A stretch of DNA of 64,000 nucleotides from Planctomycetota bacterium (GTDB lineage: Bacteria; Planctomycetota; PLA2; JAEUHO01). The DNA is taken from contig CBDCWP010000008.1 of assembly GCA_965223505.1 (NCBI GenBank), forward strand, positions 110,560 through 174,559. Reading direction: 5' to 3'. The first letter of the stretch is position 1. Every line of letters begins with the position of its first letter. Of the stretch, positions 54,789-64,000 are shown piece after piece. The position numbers and the translations under genes were made by a program. Below the pieces are notes generated by a model. It had not been told where the DNA came from. It did no database searches and was given only the letters and a program-made list of their open reading frames with translations.

Positions 54789-55474
54789 TGCGCGTGCGCG
54801 CCGTCGTCTTCGATCTGTTCGGAACCCTCGTCCCCGACATCGCGCCGGGATCGTGGGCGGACAGCAACGCCGAGATCGCGGCGCTGTTCGGAACGACCGG
54901 CAAGGCGCTCGGCGACGCGTGGCGGCCGACGTTCATGCAGCGCATGACCGGCGAGATGAAGGACGACGACCGCGTGTTCCAGTCGGCGCTCGACGCGCTC
55001 GGCATCACGGCGGACGACCAGACGCACCGGCAGGCCGTGCAGACGCGCGAGGCGTTCATGTTGCGCTGCCTGACGCCCAAGCCGGATGCGATCGAGTGCC
55101 TCGCTGCGCTGAAGGGCGCGGGCATCAAGTTGGGGCTCGCCACCGACTGCTCATCGAACACACCGCACCTGCTCGATCGCACCCCGCTCGGCGCGTTCTT
55201 GCCCGTGCGCGCGGCGTCCGCGCACCTGGGCGTCACCAAGCCGGACCCGCGCATGTACCAATTCGTGCTGGACGGGCTGGGCGTCGAGGCGCGCGACTGC
55301 GTCTACGTCGGGGACGGCAACTCGGAGGAGCTGCCGGGCGCGAAGCGACTGGGCTTCACGACGGTATGGGTCGACAACGGCGCCGATCAGCATCACCGCC
55401 GCTCCTTCGTCCCGGAGGGCGACCACACGGTGCGGGCTTTGGCCGAGATTCCGGCTCTGGTCGCGGGCCTCTGA
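54788..55474 (+). CDS. HAD-superfamily hydrolase
   Basis: AVVFDLFGTLV, KPDPRMY, YVGDGNSEELPGA..LG. Confidence 0.92.
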   Translation: MRVRAVVFDLFGTLVPDIAPGSWADSNAEIAALFGTTGKALGDAWRPTFMQRMTGEMKDDDRVFQSALDALGITADDQTHRQAVQTREAFMLRCLTPKPDAIECLAALKGAGIKLGLATDCSSNTPHLLDRTPLGAFLPVRAASAHLGVTKPDPRMYQFVLDGLGVEARDCVYVGDGNSEELPGAKRLGFTTVWVDNGADQHHRRSFVPEGDHTVRALAEIPALVAGL

Positions 55475-55534
55475 CCCGCGGCCCGGATTTCGTGCAACGC
55501 TTTGGGGGTCGGCGGCATGTCCCTTCCAAAGACC

Positions 55535-58500
55535 ATGGAATCGCAACCCCACAGCTTCCGCATCGACGAGCTCCTCGAACACCGTTCGTGGGCCACACGG
55601 CTCGCCCGCAGCCTGCTGCGCGATCCGAGCGCGGCGGACGACGTCGTCCAGCAGACCTGGATCGCGGCGCTTCGGCGTCCGCCCAAGCGCGGGCGACCGG
55701 TGCGCGGATGGCTCGCCGGCGTGATTCGCAACGAAGCACGACAGCACCACCGCGGTGAAGGCCGGCGCAAGCAGCGCGAGACCCGCGTCGCGGCGTCGAA
55801 GGGACACCTGCCCCCGGCGCACGAGATCGCGGCGAAGGTCGAGATGCAGCGCCTGCTCGCCCAGGCCGTGCTCGAGCTCGACGAGCCGTATGCGACGGCC
55901 GTCATGCTGCGGTACTTCGAAGGCCTGTCGGCTGCCGAGATCGCGCGCAAGCGCGGCGTGCCCGCCGCGACGGTTCGAAGCTGGCTGCAGCGCGGGCTCG
56001 ACAAGCTGCGCGTCGCGCTCGACCGCCGTCACGGCGGCGACCGACGTAGTTGGCAGCTCGCGCTCGTGCCGTTGCTGTCGAGGCGGGGCGCCTTCGCGGG
56101 GTTGTTCGGTTCCGTGGTCGCGGGAGTTCTGCTCATGAAGACCACGACCAAGATCGCTGTTTGCCTCTGCGCCCTGCTGCTCGCCGGCGTCTACTACGTC
56201 GTCTCGCACGACGCGCGCGGCATCGAGTCCACAGAGAGCGCCGCCGGAAGCGACCCGGCGCCCCTGGAAGGCGTCGCCGACCCGGCCTCGTCCGACGCGC
56301 CGCATCTCGAGGGGCGCGAAGCGCGCACGGCGCCCCGCGAAGCGCCCGCGCCGGCCGCACCGTCGGCCACCGAGACGAGTGACGTCGTCAAGCTGTCGGG
56401 GCACTGCGTCGACCGCGACGGCAACGTGCTCGCCGGCGCGCGGATCGTAGCCGGCGTCGCCGCCGGAACAGGAACGGGGACGCAGGTCGTCACCGGTGAG
56501 GACGGATCGTTCCAGGTGAACATTCGACCGTGGCCCGACATCACGCGCGTCGTGCTCACGGTCACCGCCGACGGCTACGAGAATCTCGAGCAGGGGGTCT
56601 CCGCCCACGCGGGCCAGGAGGTGAACGTCGGCGAGATCGTGCTGGCGCCCGGCGGGGCGGTGTCCGGCCTGGTCCTCGGACCGAACGGACGTCCGGTGAT
56701 GAGCGCCACCGTGCTGGCGACCAAGCCCGGCCTCAGCGCGAATGCGCGTAGGAACGCGCGACTGCTCGGTCCGTGGAAGCAGGCGTTTCCGTTCCGGGTG
56801 CGGACCGACGAGGACGGACGCTACACGCTGACGGGCATGCCGGTCGGCACGCTGCGGCTGTGGGCGAACGCCGACGGCCACGAACACACGTTTTCGGAGC
56901 CGCTGGAGGTACTGGCCGGCCGGACGACCCGCGCGCCGACGCTTCGGCTCGCGCCGCTGAACAACGCCGAGCTCATCACGGGCGTCGTGCACGACGAGGA
57001 GGGGCAGCCGGACCCGAACGCGATGGTCATTTATCGCTGGGCGTCAGACGACGGCAGCGGCACGTCCGGCAAGTCGGTCGACGAAGGCGGCCGGTTCCTC
57101 ATTCCGGTGCGCGATGCGGCGCGCTATTGGCTGCGCGCGGAGAGCTTCGACGGGGCGCATCGCACGCGAGAGCACGGGCCCGTCAGCGGCGGCGCCAAGC
57201 TCGTGCTCGCCTACAAGGCTGAGGCGCAGGTCGAGCTGCGCGTGCTCGGCGCCGACGGCAAACCCGTCGAACGCTTCCAGGCGCTCGTCCTCGACCCCGA
57301 GGGGAACCGCTCGCGCACGCCCGAGTACCTCACGAGTCCGAGCGGCGTCATCGGCAAGGTCGCGTTGCCGGACCACGACTTCATGCTCGAGGTGAGCGCG
57401 CGGGGCCACGTCTCGAAGCGTGTGGGGCCGTTCGCTCGCACCCGCAGCGAGCCGATCGGGGTGACGCTGGAGGCGCGCGACGGCATTCGCGGCGTCGTTC
57501 GCCACGCCGATGCGCCTCTCGCCGACGTCGTGGTCACGTTGCATTCGTTCGTCGCCGCGAACGCGGAGGTGATGGAGAACGGCTTTCCGGTCCGCACCAA
57601 CGGGCAGCCGGACGACACGACGCGCACCGACGCATCGGGTCGCTTCACGCTGTTTCCCACGCACGCCGGACGCTATGTCGTTCGCGTCGAAGCGGGCGGC
57701 GCCGCGCCCACCGAGAGCGATCCCATCGACGTCCGCGGGCTCGGCGTCTCGGAACCGATCACGCTGGAGGTGACCACGGGCGGCGCCTTGAAGGGCACCG
57801 TGCGGGGTACACGCGACCGCAGCGCGGCCGGGATCGTGGTCGGCATCTCGCGCGCGGACGGTCACGCGCGCTCGACGCGCACCGACGTCGAGGGGAACTA
57901 CCGGTTCACACGGCTCATGCCGGGCAAGTACGAGGTGCGCATCCTGGAGCGCGACCTCGCCGACGGCTACCACACGATGTCTTCCCGCGAGATCGAGACA
58001 CCGGTCGAGTTCCCGTGGAAGGTCGAGGTCTTCGAAGGCAAGACGGCGTCGTACGACATCGATCTCGCTGCGAGCGAGGGTGTGCAGCTCGAAGGCAGCC
58101 TGATGATCGACGGTGCGCCGGCCGAAGGCTGGACCGCGGAGCTGTTCTCGCTGACGCCCGACTCCGGCCTGGTGCCCGGCGAGAAGGACGCGATCGAGAC
58201 CGACGAGGACGGCCGGTTCCGACTCGCGAAGGACGCGGCGGGCTCGTACCTGCTGCGCGTCTCGACGCAGGACGAGAAGGCGCCGAACGTGTTGGCGCGA
58301 CTCGAGCTCGGCCTCGGGGTTACGCCCTGGTCACTCTCGTTCGAGACGGGCCGCCTCGAGGGCACGTTCGGCGACGCGGAGCGGCTGCAGCCCGGCGAGC
58401 GGCTGCTGCACGTCTGGGAGGCCGGCCAGGGCGCGTTCGTCGTCACCGCCGCGTTGCCCGACGGCGCGGGCCGATTCACGTTCGAGGACGTGCCGGTGGG

Positions 58501-58618
58501 GCCGGGGCGTCTCGTGCGCTTGACCGTCGAGCACATGAAGACCCTGGGCGTCGACGGCTTCCTGCGTCCGGACACCTGGCCCACCTGGAAGACCGTCGAG
58601 GTCGAACGCGGCGAGTAG
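55535..58618 (+). CDS. ECF sigma factor fused to a TM segment and carboxypeptidase-regulatory-like repeats
   Basis: Sigma2 (LARSLLRDPSAADDVVQQTW...GWL), sigma4 (LDEPYATAVMLRYFEGLSAAEIA...TVRSWLQRG), TM, many TD..G.F/Y repeats; start ATG 55535 or 55517. Confidence 0.9.
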   Translation: MESQPHSFRIDELLEHRSWATRLARSLLRDPSAADDVVQQTWIAALRRPPKRGRPVRGWLAGVIRNEARQHHRGEGRRKQRETRVAASKGHLPPAHEIAAKVEMQRLLAQAVLELDEPYATAVMLRYFEGLSAAEIARKRGVPAATVRSWLQRGLDKLRVALDRRHGGDRRSWQLALVPLLSRRGAFAGLFGSVVAGVLLMKTTTKIAVCLCALLLAGVYYVVSHDARGIESTESAAGSDPAPLEGVADPASSDAPHLEGREARTAPREAPAPAAPSATETSDVVKLSGHCVDRDGNVLAGARIVAGVAAGTGTGTQVVTGEDGSFQVNIRPWPDITRVVLTVTADGYENLEQGVSAHAGQEVNVGEIVLAPGGAVSGLVLGPNGRPVMSATVLATKPGLSANARRNARLLGPWKQAFPFRVRTDEDGRYTLTGMPVGTLRLWANADGHEHTFSEPLEVLAGRTTRAPTLRLAPLNNAELITGVVHDEEGQPDPNAMVIYRWASDDGSGTSGKSVDEGGRFLIPVRDAARYWLRAESFDGAHRTREHGPVSGGAKLVLAYKAEAQVELRVLGADGKPVERFQALVLDPEGNRSRTPEYLTSPSGVIGKVALPDHDFMLEVSARGHVSKRVGPFARTRSEPIGVTLEARDGIRGVVRHADAPLADVVVTLHSFVAANAEVMENGFPVRTNGQPDDTTRTDASGRFTLFPTHAGRYVVRVEAGGAAPTESDPIDVRGLGVSEPITLEVTTGGALKGTVRGTRDRSAAGIVVGISRADGHARSTRTDVEGNYRFTRLMPGKYEVRILERDLADGYHTMSSREIETPVEFPWKVEVFEGKTASYDIDLAASEGVQLEGSLMIDGAPAEGWTAELFSLTPDSGLVPGEKDAIETDEDGRFRLAKDAAGSYLLRVSTQDEKAPNVLARLELGLGVTPWSLSFETGRLEGTFGDAERLQPGERLLHVWEAGQGAFVVTAALPDGAGRFTFEDVPVGPGRLVRLTVEHMKTLGVDGFLRPDTWPTWKTVEVERGE

Positions 58619-58664
58619 CGGCGCGGCCCCGGTTTTCCGAACCGGTTTCACCTTCCGCGACGAG

Positions 58665-61600
58665 GTGATACTGGAGGCCGTGTTCTTGTCGCGACGACCC
58701 GTCGACCCCGATCTGCTCCTGACGCATTCCGAGTTCGTGCGCCGCATGGCGCGCGCGCTCATGCGCAACGAGCACGACGCCGACGATCTCGTCCAGGACA
58801 CGTATGCCGCGGCACTCGAACGCGGACCGAAGCGCGACGGACCGCTGCGTCCGTGGTTGGCCGGCGTCGTCAAGCGCCGCGCCGCCGACGCGAAACGCAA
58901 GGGCGCTCGGCGCGCGCAACGGGAAGAGCGCGCCGCCAAGCCGGAGGCGATCGACGCCGCGTCGACGGTCGCCGCGCGCGCGGAGCTCGGCCGGCGCGTC
59001 GTCGACGCCGTGATGGCGTTGCGCGAGCCGTATCGAACCGCGGTGCTGCTGCGTCACTACGACGGCATGCCGCCGCGCAAGATCGCGGCGAAGACCGGCG
59101 TGCCCGTCGAGACCGTGCGGACGCGTGTGCGCCGCGGGCTGGCCGAGGTGCGCGTCATGCTCAGCGGCGATTCGCGCGCGAACGACCGCTCGCTCGGCGT
59201 CGCACTCGCCCTGCTCGCGCAGCCGCGCGGCGCCTCCGTGTTCTCGGTTCTCGCTGGAGTCGCTGCCGTGAAGAAAGCCGTCTTGGCTGCCGCGCTGTTG
59301 ATCGGCGCCCTCGCGATCTGGCATTTCGTTCCCGAGTCCGCGGATGCACCGCCTCACCCCACCCCGGCGGCCGACGAGGGGCTGCCTGGGCTGAAGGGCA
59401 CGGCCGACCTGGTCGACGACGAGATCGATCACGTCACGGGTACCGCGCGTGTCGTCGGGACGGTCTACGACGGCGGCGCACCGGCGGTCGCCCAGGTCGC
59501 GCTGCACGCCTTGCCCGTTGCGGCGACGCGCGTCTCGACCCGCCCGCTGTGGACGTTCGAGGATCTGATCGCGGCCGGCGCGCCTGTCGCGACGACGCGG
59601 TCCGCGGCCGACGGGACGTTTGGATTCGACGCGGTCGCGGCCGGCCACTACGAGCTGCGGGCGTCGTCCGGCGGACGGTACGGCACGACGACGGTGTGGG
59701 TCCCGCACGACGGCGCACGCGTCGTGGCGACGGTGTCGCTGGCGTCCGGCGAGGTCTTGCTGCGCGGCAAGGCCGTCTACGCCGACGGCCGGCCGTTCCG
59801 CGGCCACATTCGGGTCCACCGGCGCCCCGGCCTCACGCAGCTCCACGCCGTCGTTCGCAACGAAACCCGGTTCGGCACGGGACTGTTCGCGACGGACGAG
59901 AACGGCGCGTTCGTCGTGCGCGGCGTCGCGCCCGGCCGCGTCGTGCTTTCGGCGTTCGTGCCCGGCCGTGTGCGGTACGTGAGCTCGCACGTGGAGCTGC
60001 CTTCCAAGAGCGAATTCGTTTTCGTGGTGGACGACGGCGCGCGTGCGGTTCAGGGGCGTGTCGTTCGCGCCGACGGCGGCGCGCCGGTGCCGCACGCGAT
60101 CGTGACGGTGACCGCCTCGCAGTCCGGAACGCACCGCACGTTCGTTCGCGTCGGTACGGATGCCGACGGACGCTTTCGCGCGCACATCGCCGGCGTCGAC
60201 GTGGGCGTGCACGTCCGCGCCGCCGGGTTTGCCGAGGCCTGGGCGGGCGCGCGGATCGAGGAGCCCATCACCGGGCACTACTACGGCGCGCACACCATGA
60301 TCAGCGCCGCGCGCCAGGATCCCGCGCCCCTGGACGTCCCGATCGTCGTGCGGCTGCTCGCGTCGGGTTCGATCTTCGGTGTCGTCTCGTCGGATGCCGG
60401 ACCGCAGGCCGGCGTCTCGGTGTATGCGGCGGCCGAGTCGATGGACGTTCGTACCGCCTGGCGCGTGACGACCAGCGACGCGGAAGGGCGCTACCGCATC
60501 GACGGGCTGCCGCCCGGTGACGTCATCGTGTTCGCGGCCGGCCCGGGCTGGGTCAGCCGGGATCTGGACGACCTGACCATGGCCGGGGGCGCCCACGGCT
60601 TTGCGACGACGGTCGCGCCGGGCGCTGACGTGCGGCGCGATCTGCGCGTCGCGACGTCCGGGCGGATTCGCGGCCGCGTGATCGACGAGAACGGGGATCC
60701 GGTGAGTGCGTGCTCCGTTCATGCCGGTCCCTCCGCGTTTCCGTTTCCCACGCAAACGCTCCAGGCGCCTGCGTGGTTGGGCGCGACGGTCACCGACGCG
60801 GACGGTGCGTTCGTCGTCGATCCCTTGTTGACGGGGTTCGCGCACAAGCTGTATGCCAACGCGGGCGATCGTCCGATCGTCGAGACCGAACCGATCTTCG
60901 TCGCGGCGGGAGAGCTCGATCCGGTCGAGATCAGGCTCCCGGCGACCCGCTGGATCGAGGTGCGCGTGACCGACGAGTCCACGCACGATCCGATCCCCGA
61001 CGCGCGCGTGCGCATCGGCGGCGTGCGCGGCACGTTCATCGTCGATCAATGGGTGACGAACGCAGAAGGCATGGCACGCATCGGGCCGCTGCCTGCGTCG
61101 CAGTACTACCTGGCGTTTGTCGAGGCCGCTGGCTACGTGGGCGCGCGCCGGCCGGCGACCATCGAGCCCAAGGACACCGGGTCCGCGCTAGCGCGTGCCG
61201 AGATCGTACTCACGCGCGGGGCTGTGATCGCGGGCACGATCGTCGCGCCGCAGGGTGTCCCGGTCGTGCGCGCGGTCGCACAGCTGCAGTTCCCGCGCAA
61301 GCGACGGCGTTCGGGCGAGATCTCGTGGCGCACGAAGGCGTCCGTGAACGTCGGATCGGACGGCCGCTTCCGCTTCTCGGGGCTGGAAGACGGCGAGTAC
61401 CGCGTGCGCGCCGAGCTTCAATGGGACGTTCACGACCTGGCCGTTCACCAAGACGCCTCGCTCGGCGACACCGACCTTCGCCTGGAGCTCGCCGACGTCG
61501 GGGACGGTCCGACCTGGGCCGTCAACGTCAAGGGGGCCGACGGTGGCCGCGTGTTCGACGGGCGGCTGCGGTTCCGGCTGAACGAGCGCGGCGGCCGGGC

Positions 61601-63071
61601 GGCAGACGAGGCCACGGACATCCGCAACGGACGGGCGGTGTTCCGTTCCGAGGGCGACGTCGCGTCGGCATCCATCACGGTCTTCGCGTGCCGCGACGAC
61701 ACCGGTCGGCAGGGCGCGTTCGGCGCCGTCACCGATCTGGAGATCGACCCGGCGGGCGGGGAGATCGACGTCACGCTACCGGCGCCGCGTTCGCTCACCG
61801 GAGCCGTGATGTGCGAAGGCAGGCCCGTCGAAGGCGTCGTCGTAGCCGTCGCGCCACCGGGCTGGACGCACGTGGCCGGCTCGAACGCGCACGCGCATGC
61901 ACGCACCGACGCGTCCGGCGCGTTCGTGCTGCGGGGGCTGGGCGGCGGCCCGCACGCCGTCCATGTGCACGCCGGGTACGACTACATGCAAGTCGAGCCG
62001 ACGCTGCTCGCGTCGCTTGCGCCGCTCACGATCGAGCTCGAACGAAGCGCCGGTCCGACCGTCACGGTGCTCGACGCGGCGGGCCGCCCGACGAACGGCG
62101 TTCGGGTGGAGCTGCGCGACCCCGGACAGCCGTATCTCGATCCCATCAGCGGGCGCGGTCCGGCGAACGCCATCGGTCAGGGCACGGGCAACGACGGCAA
62201 GGCACGGCTGCGGAACGTGCCGACCGGACGCGCGTTCGATCTCCACGTCGTGCCGAAGAACACGGCGTGGGCCTCCCAGGTGGTTCGGGATTGGACCCCC
62301 GCCGACACGACGGTCCGGCTCGAAGAAGCGTTGACGATCGAGGGCACCGTCGCGACCCAGGAGCGCAGCTCGATGCTGCGGCTCTGGTATCGGCGGGACG
62401 GACATGCGTGGGCGCGCGGCAGTGTGGCCTCGAACCACGCGTTCGTGATTTCCGGTCTCTCGCGCGGTGAACGCGTACGCGTGTTCGCGACAGGCGGGCT
62501 CATGCCGCCGTCCGGCGACGAAGGCGGTGTCGAGCTGGAAGCCGGCGCGCGCAACGTGACCATCACGCCGAAGGCGTCGGTGACGCAGCGCATCCACGTA
62601 CGTGGGTGGGACGCGTCCTGGGAGAACGTCATGCTCGCCGCGGTGCCGCGGGGGTTGAACCACTCGCTGGTGGGCGTGACCCAGACGGACGGGAGCGCCA
62701 AGCTGTATCGACTCGAAGCCGGACGCGAGTACGCACTGTTCGTCGGGCCGACGCCGGACGGTCGCTACGGTTGGGTCCCGTCGTTCCTCGCCAGCGAGAA
62801 CGAGCTCTCCGTCGATCTCGTGAAGGGAGAGCGAATCGAAGGGACGATCGAGCCACCGGAAGGCGCGACGATCCGCAACGCGTTCGTCCGCCGCGAAGGG
62901 CTCACGATCACGGTCGAGGTCGACGAGCAGGGGCGCTTCAGGCTCGACGGGCTGCGGCCGGGCAAGTGGCTGTTCTTCGCGTACGCGCGGCGCGACGGGG
63001 ACACCGTCAGCGCGGCGGAGTGGATCGAGACGGGCACGTCGAGCGTCATCAAGGACTTCACGAACCCCTGA
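58665..63071 (+). CDS. ECF sigma factor fused to a TM segment and a very long carboxypeptidase-regulatory-like repeat region
   Basis: ADDLVQDTY...PWL, LREPYRTAVLLRHYDGM...VETVRTRVRRGL, TM, about 1200 aa of beta-sandwich repeats; the true start may be TTG 58686 after GGAGG. Confidence 0.9.
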   Translation: MILEAVFLSRRPVDPDLLLTHSEFVRRMARALMRNEHDADDLVQDTYAAALERGPKRDGPLRPWLAGVVKRRAADAKRKGARRAQREERAAKPEAIDAASTVAARAELGRRVVDAVMALREPYRTAVLLRHYDGMPPRKIAAKTGVPVETVRTRVRRGLAEVRVMLSGDSRANDRSLGVALALLAQPRGASVFSVLAGVAAVKKAVLAAALLIGALAIWHFVPESADAPPHPTPAADEGLPGLKGTADLVDDEIDHVTGTARVVGTVYDGGAPAVAQVALHALPVAATRVSTRPLWTFEDLIAAGAPVATTRSAADGTFGFDAVAAGHYELRASSGGRYGTTTVWVPHDGARVVATVSLASGEVLLRGKAVYADGRPFRGHIRVHRRPGLTQLHAVVRNETRFGTGLFATDENGAFVVRGVAPGRVVLSAFVPGRVRYVSSHVELPSKSEFVFVVDDGARAVQGRVVRADGGAPVPHAIVTVTASQSGTHRTFVRVGTDADGRFRAHIAGVDVGVHVRAAGFAEAWAGARIEEPITGHYYGAHTMISAARQDPAPLDVPIVVRLLASGSIFGVVSSDAGPQAGVSVYAAAESMDVRTAWRVTTSDAEGRYRIDGLPPGDVIVFAAGPGWVSRDLDDLTMAGGAHGFATTVAPGADVRRDLRVATSGRIRGRVIDENGDPVSACSVHAGPSAFPFPTQTLQAPAWLGATVTDADGAFVVDPLLTGFAHKLYANAGDRPIVETEPIFVAAGELDPVEIRLPATRWIEVRVTDESTHDPIPDARVRIGGVRGTFIVDQWVTNAEGMARIGPLPASQYYLAFVEAAGYVGARRPATIEPKDTGSALARAEIVLTRGAVIAGTIVAPQGVPVVRAVAQLQFPRKRRRSGEISWRTKASVNVGSDGRFRFSGLEDGEYRVRAELQWDVHDLAVHQDASLGDTDLRLELADVGDGPTWAVNVKGADGGRVFDGRLRFRLNERGGRAADEATDIRNGRAVFRSEGDVASASITVFACRDDTGRQGAFGAVTDLEIDPAGGEIDVTLPAPRSLTGAVMCEGRPVEGVVVAVAPPGWTHVAGSNAHAHARTDASGAFVLRGLGGGPHAVHVHAGYDYMQVEPTLLASLAPLTIELERSAGPTVTVLDAAGRPTNGVRVELRDPGQPYLDPISGRGPANAIGQGTGNDGKARLRNVPTGRAFDLHVVPKNTAWASQVVRDWTPADTTVRLEEALTIEGTVATQERSSMLRLWYRRDGHAWARGSVASNHAFVISGLSRGERVRVFATGGLMPPSGDEGGVELEAGARNVTITPKASVTQRIHVRGWDASWENVMLAAVPRGLNHSLVGVTQTDGSAKLYRLEAGREYALFVGPTPDGRYGWVPSFLASENELSVDLVKGERIEGTIEPPEGATIRNAFVRREGLTITVEVDEQGRFRLDGLRPGKWLFFAYARRDGDTVSAAEWIETGTSSVIKDFTNP

Positions 63072-63110
63072 ACCCCTGACCTGCGCCCCGTTCGTTCCTA
63101 TCTTGTGAAC

Positions 63111-64000
63111 ATGAGGGTGCCCGCTCCCGTGCCGCTCGATCAGCTGCTCGCCCACAAGGCATGGCTGCGGCGGCTGGCGCATGCGTTGGTCAAGGACCCC
63201 AACCGCGCCGACGACCTGGAGCAGGAGGTGTGGCTGCGCGCGATGCGCACCCCGCCCCGTTCGAGACGTTCGCTGCGAGGCTGGCTGGGCACGGTGCTTC
63301 GGCGCACCGCGGTCGATCAACACCGCGCAGACGAACGGCGCGAGCGGCATGAGGGCGCGCGAGCGTCGCGCGCGAGCCGTACCGTTCCGGGCGCGGCCGT
63401 GCTGGCCGAGCAGGCCGACACGCACCGGCGCGTGACGGATGCCGTGCTCGCTCTCGATGAGCCGTACCGCAGCACGCTGCTGCTGCGCTACGTCGGTGAA
63501 CGTTCGATCAAGGACGTGGCGCGAGAGCAAGGCGTTCCGCTCGAGACGGTGCGAACGCGATTGCGGCGCGCGCTCGCGAAGCTGCGCGAGAGCCTCGACG
63601 TCGAGTACGGCGGCAGCAAGCGCTGGATGGCGGCGTTGGTCCCCTTGATCGACGGCAGGGTGCTCGGTGGGGCGGGGTTGGCGACCGCGGCGACGGGAGG
63701 TGTGTTGATGGGTGCGAAGATGGTGATCGCGATCGGTGTCGTCGCCGCGTGTGCGGCGGGGTGGCTGATCTGGGGCAGCGTCGTGTCCGATCCGTCCGTC
63801 ACCGAGGAGGTCGCCGACCGCGCGCTGCCCGACGACGACGAGATGGACACCACGACCCTCGCTGACGCCGGCGCGTCGCCCGCGCTCGAGGGGCGGGTGC
63901 CGGAGGCGTCGGCGCAGCCGGGCGCGACCGGGGCGGATTCGCTGCGGGCGCCGGACGCGGGGCTGCTGCGGTCGCGCAGGGAGGCGGCCGGGCCCGGACG
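63111..64000 (+). CDS. Third ECF sigma factor-TM fusion; runs off the window end
   Basis: Manual translation from ATG 63111: MRVPAPVPLDQLLAHKAWLRRLAHALVKDPNRADDLEQEVW...GWL...LDEPYRSTLLLRY...LETVRTRLRRAL...GGVLMGAKMVIAIGVVAACAAGWLIW...PALEG; open to 64000. Confidence 0.9.
   Translation, partial: MRVPAPVPLDQLLAHKAWLRRLAHALVKDPNRADDLEQEVWLRAMRTPPRSRRSLRGWLGTVLRRTAVDQHRADERRERHEGARASRASRTVPGAAVLAEQADTHRRVTDAVLALDEPYRSTLLLRYVGERSIKDVAREQGVPLETVRTRLRRALAKLRESLDVEYGGSKRWMAALVPLIDGRVLGGAGLATAATGGVLMGAKMVIAIGVVAACAAGWLIWGSVVSDPSVTEEVADRALPDDDEMDTTTLADAGASPALEGRVPEASAQPGATGADSLRAPDAGLLRSRREAAGPG

Follow-up and report, generated by a model that had tools for sequence, protein, structure and literature searches.

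Can one gene for a membrane-tethered sigma factor yield two proteins, one with and one without its sigma domain? The question is raised by three tandem open reading frames (ORFs) in a stretch of 64,000 nucleotides from a Planctomycetota bacterium (assembly GCA_965223505.1, contig CBDCWP010000008.1, positions 110,560 to 174,559), referred to below as the window. The ORFs lie on the plus strand and fill the window from 55.5 kb to its end, which is also the end of the contig. They encode fusions of an extracytoplasmic function (ECF) sigma factor with a transmembrane (TM) helix and an extracytoplasmic domain, and each contains a Shine-Dalgarno (SD) sequence and an in-frame start codon where the sigma region gives way to the membrane segment. 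Comparison with related genes makes it very probable that this is a selected internal translation start, which would give a sigma-less, membrane-anchored ectodomain isoform beside the full fusion. A first-pass annotation of the window had proposed two proteins from each gene, the shorter one acting as a decoy, co-receptor, effector or anti-sigma-like partner. The comparative tests support a selected start, and the anti-sigma-like role appears unlikely, because only 3-5 residues, all cytoplasmic, separate the initiator from the TM helix in the predicted short forms of genes 1-3.

Probable internal start sites in three sigma factor fusions and their relatives

All three internal starts are in frame with the sigma ORFs and fall at about codon 195-201, directly 5' of the TM helix (Table 1). 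An SD with an in-frame start near codon 200 of each gene had been claimed at first pass, and the positions read from the sequence are exactly those claimed. From the internal start, gene 1 opens with MKTTTK followed by IAVCLCALLLAGVYYVV, gene 2 with VKKA followed by VLAAALLIGALAIWHFV, and gene 3 with MGAK followed by MVIAIGVV... The internal Met of gene 1 is residue 201, counted from ATG 55535. The codon GGA is uncommon in the source genome (assembly of 5.15 Mb, 67% GC) and GGC dominates, as had been stated, with 9.2% and 63.5% of all Gly codons, respectively. Genome-wide, deep in-frame ATGs (n=14,042) are preceded by GGAG at spacers of 8, 7 and 5 nt in 0.12%, 0.12% and 0.11% of cases, and towards the 5' ends of ORFs the frequency of GGAG before ATG peaks at spacers of 5-10 nt. 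The spacing at the internal sites agrees with the SD spacing of genuine starts in this genome.

Table 1. Fusion genes, internal initiation regions, predicted products and a stand-alone gene, in window positions.
Feature	Position	Strand	Description	Basis
Gene 1, full-length fusion	55535..58618	+	ECF sigma (sigma2, sigma4), linker helix, one TM helix, CarboxypepD_reg repeats	ORF, Pfam, AlphaFold2, Foldseek
Gene 2, full-length fusion	58686..63071	+		ORF, Pfam, start candidates
Gene 3, fusion cut by contig end	63111..63998	+		ORF, Pfam, start candidates
Gene 1 internal initiation region	56122..56137	+	GGGAG 56122-56126, 8-nt spacer, ATG 56135-56137	
Gene 2 internal initiation region	59256..59270	+	GGAG 59256-59259, 8-nt spacer, GTG 59268-59270; TM helix 59280-59330	
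Gene 3 internal initiation region	63696..63710	+	GGAGG 63696-63700, 7-nt spacer, ATG 63708-63710; TM helix 63720-63770	
Gene 1 predicted short isoform, 827 aa	56135..58618	+	MKTTTK, TM anchor (56153-56203), acidic spacer, CarboxypepD_reg repeats	
Stand-alone membrane-anchored protein, 575 aa	38502-40229		Begins with TM anchor; weak AGGGA-type SD	

The arrangement was surveyed in a family of 134 ORFs that run at least 60 residues past sigma4, 28 from the source genome and 106 from other loci. Relatives were collected with a profile of 23 paralogs (alignment A1), which gave 30 loci (L021, the locus of gene 1 itself, and L022-L050, one locus from each of 29 relatives' genomes), and by a contig search with a closer 6-row alignment (A2), which gave a further 80. 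Nearly all related loci in public records are labelled as Planctomycetota metagenome-assembled genomes (MAGs). The signal was defined as GGAG or GAGG followed, after 4-10 nt, by an in-frame ATG or GTG, all within 18 codons around the TM start.

The signal was present in 82 of the 134 members, comprising 21 of the 28 own-genome paralogs and 61 of the 106 other loci, against 246 of 4335 control windows in the same ORFs (5.7%). Resampling of synonymous codons with the amino acids fixed gave a mean of only 16.2 of the 134 (sd 3.3, maximum 27, 500 runs). By a generic anti-SD energy, 84 of the 134 members reached -6 kcal/mol or lower, compared with 9.1% of control windows. A Met codon occurred in the junction window of 69 of 94 SD-bearing and 14 of 40 SD-lacking members and in 16.3% of control windows, a count that ignores relatedness. 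Two of the properties expected of a functional internal start are found here: the SD lies at a start-competent distance, and the site is preserved in homologs beyond what the protein needs.

Codon choice and mRNA folding at the junction

The codons at the site were examined independently of the SD. The internal Met was chosen blind to it, solely from its place before the final Lys or Arg preceding the TM core; 70 members allowed this choice. The fourth codon upstream (-4) encodes Gly in 51 of them, as GGA in 43, GGG in 5, GGC in 2 and GGT in 1. Among the other Gly codons of the same ORFs, GGA makes up 12.4% (565/4552) and GGT 11.6% (binomial p 2.5e-31 for GGA at -4). Enrichment of GGA four codons before the internal Met or Val of homologs had been suggested at first pass as a check on the proposal, and this check was passed clearly. 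GGT, equally rare, appears once in 51, so that GGA followed by G, not codon rarity, is what has been selected.

A position matrix of the 82 positives has G at -12 in 73, at -11 in 71 and at -9 in 77, and A at -10 in 68. The start codon is ATG in 61 and GTG in 21 of them, Lys or Arg follows at +1 to +6 in 79, and the spacer measured 7-8 nt in 61 of the 76 sites of the first scan. The GC content of third codon positions (GC3), which averages 0.84 in the family ORFs, drops to 0.15 at codon -4, 0.61 at codon -3 and 0.62 at codon +1. This drop bears out, at the level of the family, the earlier remark that the site is surrounded by A/T-ending codons.

These counts also bear on whether the nucleotide pattern is incidental to a conserved protein motif, G-[GAV]-x-x-M-x(1-5)-K, at the membrane face. 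The predominance of Gly at codon -4 and the consensus G-x-x-x-M in the 118 aligned N-terminal regions would fit such a motif. It cannot, however, account for the use of GGA over GGC (43 against 2), for the excess over the amino-acid-fixed null, or for the retention of GGAG or GAGG where the residues are W-S, G-S or X-E. The residue pairs that encode the SD in the 82 positives are G-G in 30, G-A in 25, G-V in 20 and others in 7, the last being G-S (GGG AGC) twice, W-S (TGG AGC) once, X-Glu three times and G-E once (with GGA). The residues after Gly are merely those that have G-starting codons and are tolerated near the membrane, which makes the protein motif look like a consequence of the RNA signal. 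A cause at the protein level is extremely unlikely.

GGAG might instead act during elongation, as a pause or rare-codon signal that slows ribosomes before the TM segment and so aids membrane targeting past a large cytoplasmic N-domain. For membrane proteins of E. coli, SD-like sequences ahead of membrane segments have been proposed to cause pausing, and in most members the motif lies directly upstream of the sole TM helix. A pause needs no start codon, yet ATG or GTG stands 7-8 nt downstream in most sites and Met is enriched together with the SD. The single GGT in 51 indicates that rarity was not selected, and the base following is G in 77 of 82, completing GGAG. From established knowledge it can also be reasoned that stalling before the TM segment has been translated cannot aid the signal recognition particle (SRP) in recognising that segment.

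Folding of the mRNA bears on the same alternative. The folding energy of a 41-nt window was -7.6 kcal/mol at the internal start, compared with about -14.5 kcal/mol on either side of it. Synonymous resamples of the same peptides gave -10.55 kcal/mol (Wilcoxon p 2.5e-12), and at -60 nt the observed and resampled values did not differ (p 0.83). The 52 members without the signal showed no folding dip, with about -13.9 kcal/mol. Such local unfolding of the mRNA marks initiation, and given all these observations a pause signal is a very unlikely explanation.

Age and probable origin of the predicted internal start

The SD, start codon and signal-anchor could also be a fossil, that is, neutral and unused leftovers of a captured downstream gene, an alternative already named by the first-pass annotation. 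According to the accessible text of Pinto et al. 2020 (PMC7671368), planctomycetal sigma2-sigma4 modules are proposed to duplicate, insert into intergenic DNA and 'sequester the in-frame downstream gene', a route that would leave a ribosome-binding site (RBS) and an ATG where the two parts meet. From the conserved linker helix to the SD, the sequence is of variable length and low complexity (A1), as might be expected of intergenic DNA that has come to be translated. A relic would likewise fit the 39% of members that lack the signal and the scatter of the trait on the tree.

Other properties of the family speak against neutrality. A neutral GGA would drift to its background frequency instead of occupying 43 of the 51 Gly codons at -4, and the whole signal is five times as frequent as in the synonymous null (82 against 16.2 +/- 3.3). 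The SD-bearing members have a median pairwise sigma-domain identity of 0.42, and within the source genome the nearest paralog is at most 0.59 identical over the sigma domain. At such distances silent sites are long saturated, and the fusions must be old rather than recent. A relic would not be expected to show mRNA unfolding beyond the level dictated by the protein. The ectodomain class is uniform: 77 of 101 C-terminal pieces of relatives match CarboxypepD_reg, 24 match nothing, and no other domain class was matched, which argues for one old fusion rather than repeated capture. The genome otherwise depletes GGAG at start-competent in-phase spacers within genes. GGAG is found at in-phase spacers 6 and 9 in 0.71% of cases, against 1.15-1.5% at the other in-phase spacers of 12-30 nt, and this looks like a genome-wide avoidance of accidental internal starts. 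The saturated silent sites and the selectively unfolded mRNA in particular disfavour the fossil, which we consider improbable. The start probably derives from that of a downstream gene which formerly stood alone, and is now maintained rather than a relic.

All 134 family ORFs read from sigma4 into the TM helix without a stop codon, and no split form was found among the relatives. A further 21 ORFs end soon after sigma4, of which 17 are own-genome ECF genes with a stop codon and 4 run off the end of a contig. Those short own-genome ECF genes that have zf-type neighbours upstream look like ordinary sigma genes, the anti-sigma factor being encoded by a gene of its own.

Several observations weigh against a selected internal start. 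The canonical SD and start are missing from 52 of the 134 members (39%), and the feature is not obligatory; some of these members carry only G-runs, GGGGG or AAGGGGG, the latter being the weaker run (K-G) of relatives L038 and L052, which stand outside the 82. A comparison of SD and Met co-variation that controlled for relatedness yielded only 5 independent pairs on supported branches, too few to be informative. Mapped on the sigma-domain tree, the trait requires 39 changes, where shuffled labels give 41.0 +/- 2.8; this near-random scatter fits many losses or gains, or an unresolved tree, and offers no clear view of ancestral retention. The fusion route of PMC7671368, as far as its accessible text goes, would yield an RBS and an ATG at the junction as a by-product. 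The ordinary, near-unambiguous starts of the genome have an SD in 158 of 654 cases (24%), which means that an SD is neither necessary nor proven sufficient for initiation here. Finally, a short-motif search of the assembly did not find the 3' end of the 16S rRNA. The anti-SD sequence is assumed for this reason, and the genome-wide spacer peak backs the assumption.

Fusion architecture, the predicted short isoform and related systems

Pfam matched Sigma70_r2 and Sigma70_r4_2 (PF04542, PF08281) at the N-terminus of all three genes, and 5-8 recognisable CarboxypepD_reg repeats downstream of sigma in genes 1 and 2, gene 3 being cut. With 69.5, 73.4 and 66.2 bits against the ECF superfamily model TIGR02937 (cut-off 42.9), the three proteins belong to the ECF (group IV) sigma-70 factors. 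Scores with the NCBIfam ECF subfamily and equivalog models all fell below their cut-offs (for example, 57.6 against 124.55 bits for TIGR02989). Residues 1-231 of gene 1 were modelled by AlphaFold2 with 118 aligned relatives (mean pLDDT 87.6). The model shows sigma2 at residues 10-88 and sigma4 at 95-165, with pLDDT blocks of 88-98 in the sigma domains, a confident linker helix at 170-181 (block mean pLDDT 92), a segment of low confidence at 191-204, which contains the internal Met, and the TM helix at 206-227. The best Foldseek matches of the model were the ECF sigma factors L, H and E. A sigma domain, a single TM helix and an extracytoplasmic domain are thus joined within one ORF.

The linker helix corresponds to a conserved motif after sigma4, approximately R-R-x-W-x-x-A-L-x-P-L (window 56042-56077 in gene 1; alignments A1 and A3), and might serve as a minimal self-inhibitory element by docking on the sigma domains. 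Trp commonly occupies the outer end of the TM helix, and in most paralogs a spacer rich in Asp and Glu follows before the first beta-sandwich repeat (A1, columns ~285-326).

The upstream starts differ from the internal ones in their SDs. For gene 1, ATG 55535 is the likeliest sigma start, with ATG 55517 and TTG 55502 as alternatives, and no GGAG or GAGG precedes any of them; for gene 3, ATG 63111 and GTG 63105 are both without an SD. Every start candidate of these two genes bears out the first-pass remark that their sigma starts have no SD. In gene 2, TTG 58686 follows GGAGG (58673-58677) with an 8-nt spacer and gives a length that matches the N-termini of relatives. The longest-ORF start, GTG 58665, has no usable SD, and TTG 58686 is probably the sigma start of this gene. 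Across the family, 24 of 130 members have an SD-bearing sigma-start candidate no more than 25 codons from the conserved N-terminal block. The internal start appears stronger than the sigma start, which suggests that the short form is in excess.

The frequency of an SD at the sigma start was also compared between the two classes of members. It was found in 10 of 80 members with the internal signal and in 14 of 50 without it (Fisher p 0.036, with relatedness ignored).

We propose the following mechanism for a selected internal start. The fusion would act as a membrane-tethered ECF sigma factor built from sigma2-sigma4, the linker helix, a flexible stretch rich in Gly, Ala and Thr, the TM helix and the ectodomain, the last being predicted to form an extracytoplasmic array of CarboxypepD_reg (transthyretin-like) beta-sandwich repeats. 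The initiation region lies in the flexible stretch and consists of GGAG(G), supplied mostly by GGA and a G-starting codon, a spacer of 7-8 nt, ATG or GTG, and unfolded mRNA. Ribosomes starting here would make a protein that begins with a short n-region (Met, 1-5 residues, Lys), continues into the TM helix and ectodomain of the fusion and has no sigma domain, probably in excess over the full-length product. The short form is expected to share the N-in, C-out topology of the fusion and could co-assemble with it or compete for a ligand or protease. Such co-assembly or competition might set the threshold for release of the tethered sigma domain by regulated intramembrane proteolysis, as in IutY.

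A wider joint reading can be offered tentatively, although we think it unlikely. The SD-driven short isoform would be the main product and form an abundant membrane-anchored beta-sandwich array, into which a rare, SD-less, sigma-tagged 'sentinel' would co-assemble; damage to or engagement of the array would lead to proteolytic release of sigma, and the gene would be re-induced. If this held, the expanded planctomycetal sigma/TM fusion families would follow, as a general rule of design, a scheme of two proteins from one frame, and the RNA signal would have given rise to the G-[GAV]-x-x-M 'protein motif' as a by-product.

ECF sigma factors fused to membrane segments and ectodomains are among the most expanded regulators of Planctomycetota and are currently read as one-protein 'one-component' systems. 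If most fusions also yield a sigma-less sensor, models of sensing and reset would need revision with regard to stoichiometry, decoy or partner effects and autoregulation. Gene counts would then understate the proteome, and annotation that assigns a single product to each ORF would overlook an entire class of proteins.

The closest comparison for the tethered form is IutY of Pseudomonas putida (ECF243), in which one polypeptide likewise joins an ECF sigma domain in the cytosol to a single TM segment and an extracytoplasmic domain. According to the available parts of PMC5411451 and PMC8999054, Prc and the site-2 protease RseP set this sigma domain free. By analogy, the fusions would be freed by site-1/site-2 proteolysis, and Peptidase_M50 (site-2 protease) genes are present in the source genome. 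Unlike IutY, genes 1-3 have no FecR family among their Pfam matches and no TonB-dependent transducer in their context, their neighbours being unrelated regulators. The sections of PMC5411451 that could be consulted describe no internal start in IutY, whereas the present fusions carry a predicted one, together with a CarboxypepD_reg array as ectodomain.

For the internal start itself, arcB of E. coli offers a parallel in the accessible part of Meydan et al. (bioRxiv 10.1101/520783). There, too, an SD-like element and an in-frame start at a domain boundary are conserved across species, and synonymous mutation of the SD and start abolishes the short product, ArcB-C. ArcB-C is a soluble domain freed from a membrane protein, in contrast to the predicted short form here, which would keep the anchor and ectodomain and lose the regulator. 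In further contrast to arcB, the site predicted here recurs in 21 of 28 own paralogs and in relatives' genomes. Two-polypeptide phage endolysins (PMC9430671) share with the present genes an in-frame nested start and a common stop codon, and their full-length and short products multimerize, as far as the available text reports. They are phage lytic enzymes rather than signalling proteins, and the corresponding heteromers of the sigma fusions are hypothetical.

Within the phylum, the planctomycetal ECF factors in the accessible text of Pinto et al. 2020 (PMC7671368) also have a sigma2-sigma4 module with a large C-terminal extension and have expanded by duplication; that text makes no mention of an internal or alternative start. 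ECF57 (formerly ECF01-Gob) is characterized by WD40-like repeats and two conserved Cys linking sigma2 and sigma4, in the available part of PMC8999054. Gene 1 differs in having no WD40 match in Pfam and no Cys in its sigma region. Targeted literature searches found no internal start described for membrane-tethered sigma fusions. Internal-start isoforms and tethered sigma hybrids are each already known, and what appears to be new is the combination, a family-wide conserved internal start that removes the regulator and keeps the anchor and sensor.

The window also holds a stand-alone gene (Table 1) that had been likened at first pass to the predicted short isoform. It does begin with a TM anchor, as the likeness would have it, but has no detectable similarity to the short form of gene 1 (BLASTP E 0.12). 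Its CarboxypepD_reg match of 27.4 bits is below the Pfam cut-off of 32.3. A scan of positions 55300-64000 for sigma-70 promoters and terminators gave no promoter-like and no terminator-like element and is uninformative on an internal promoter. Outside the sigma family, 30 same-frame matches to an internal SD, start and TM segment were judged to be background; most have Glu before the start, and among the peptides listed none has the G..M..K pattern.

Across 41 genomes of the same family, order and phylum, the profile matched 2-67 genes per genome, with 35 in the source genome. Where counts are lowest the matches are weak (E about 1e-22 to 1e-31), and the genes behind them may simply be ordinary ECF sigma genes. 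In places paralogs stand head to head, as on contig C24 of the source genome (G000; 135495-136178 on the minus and 136266-137036 on the plus strand), or in tandem, as on C31, on C38 and in the trio of the window. Four loci from MAGs labelled Kofleriaceae, Myxococcales and Pseudohongiellaceae (L097, L116, L119 and L121) carry the same fusion with an internal SD and start, and represent either a wider distribution or mislabelled or misbinned contigs.

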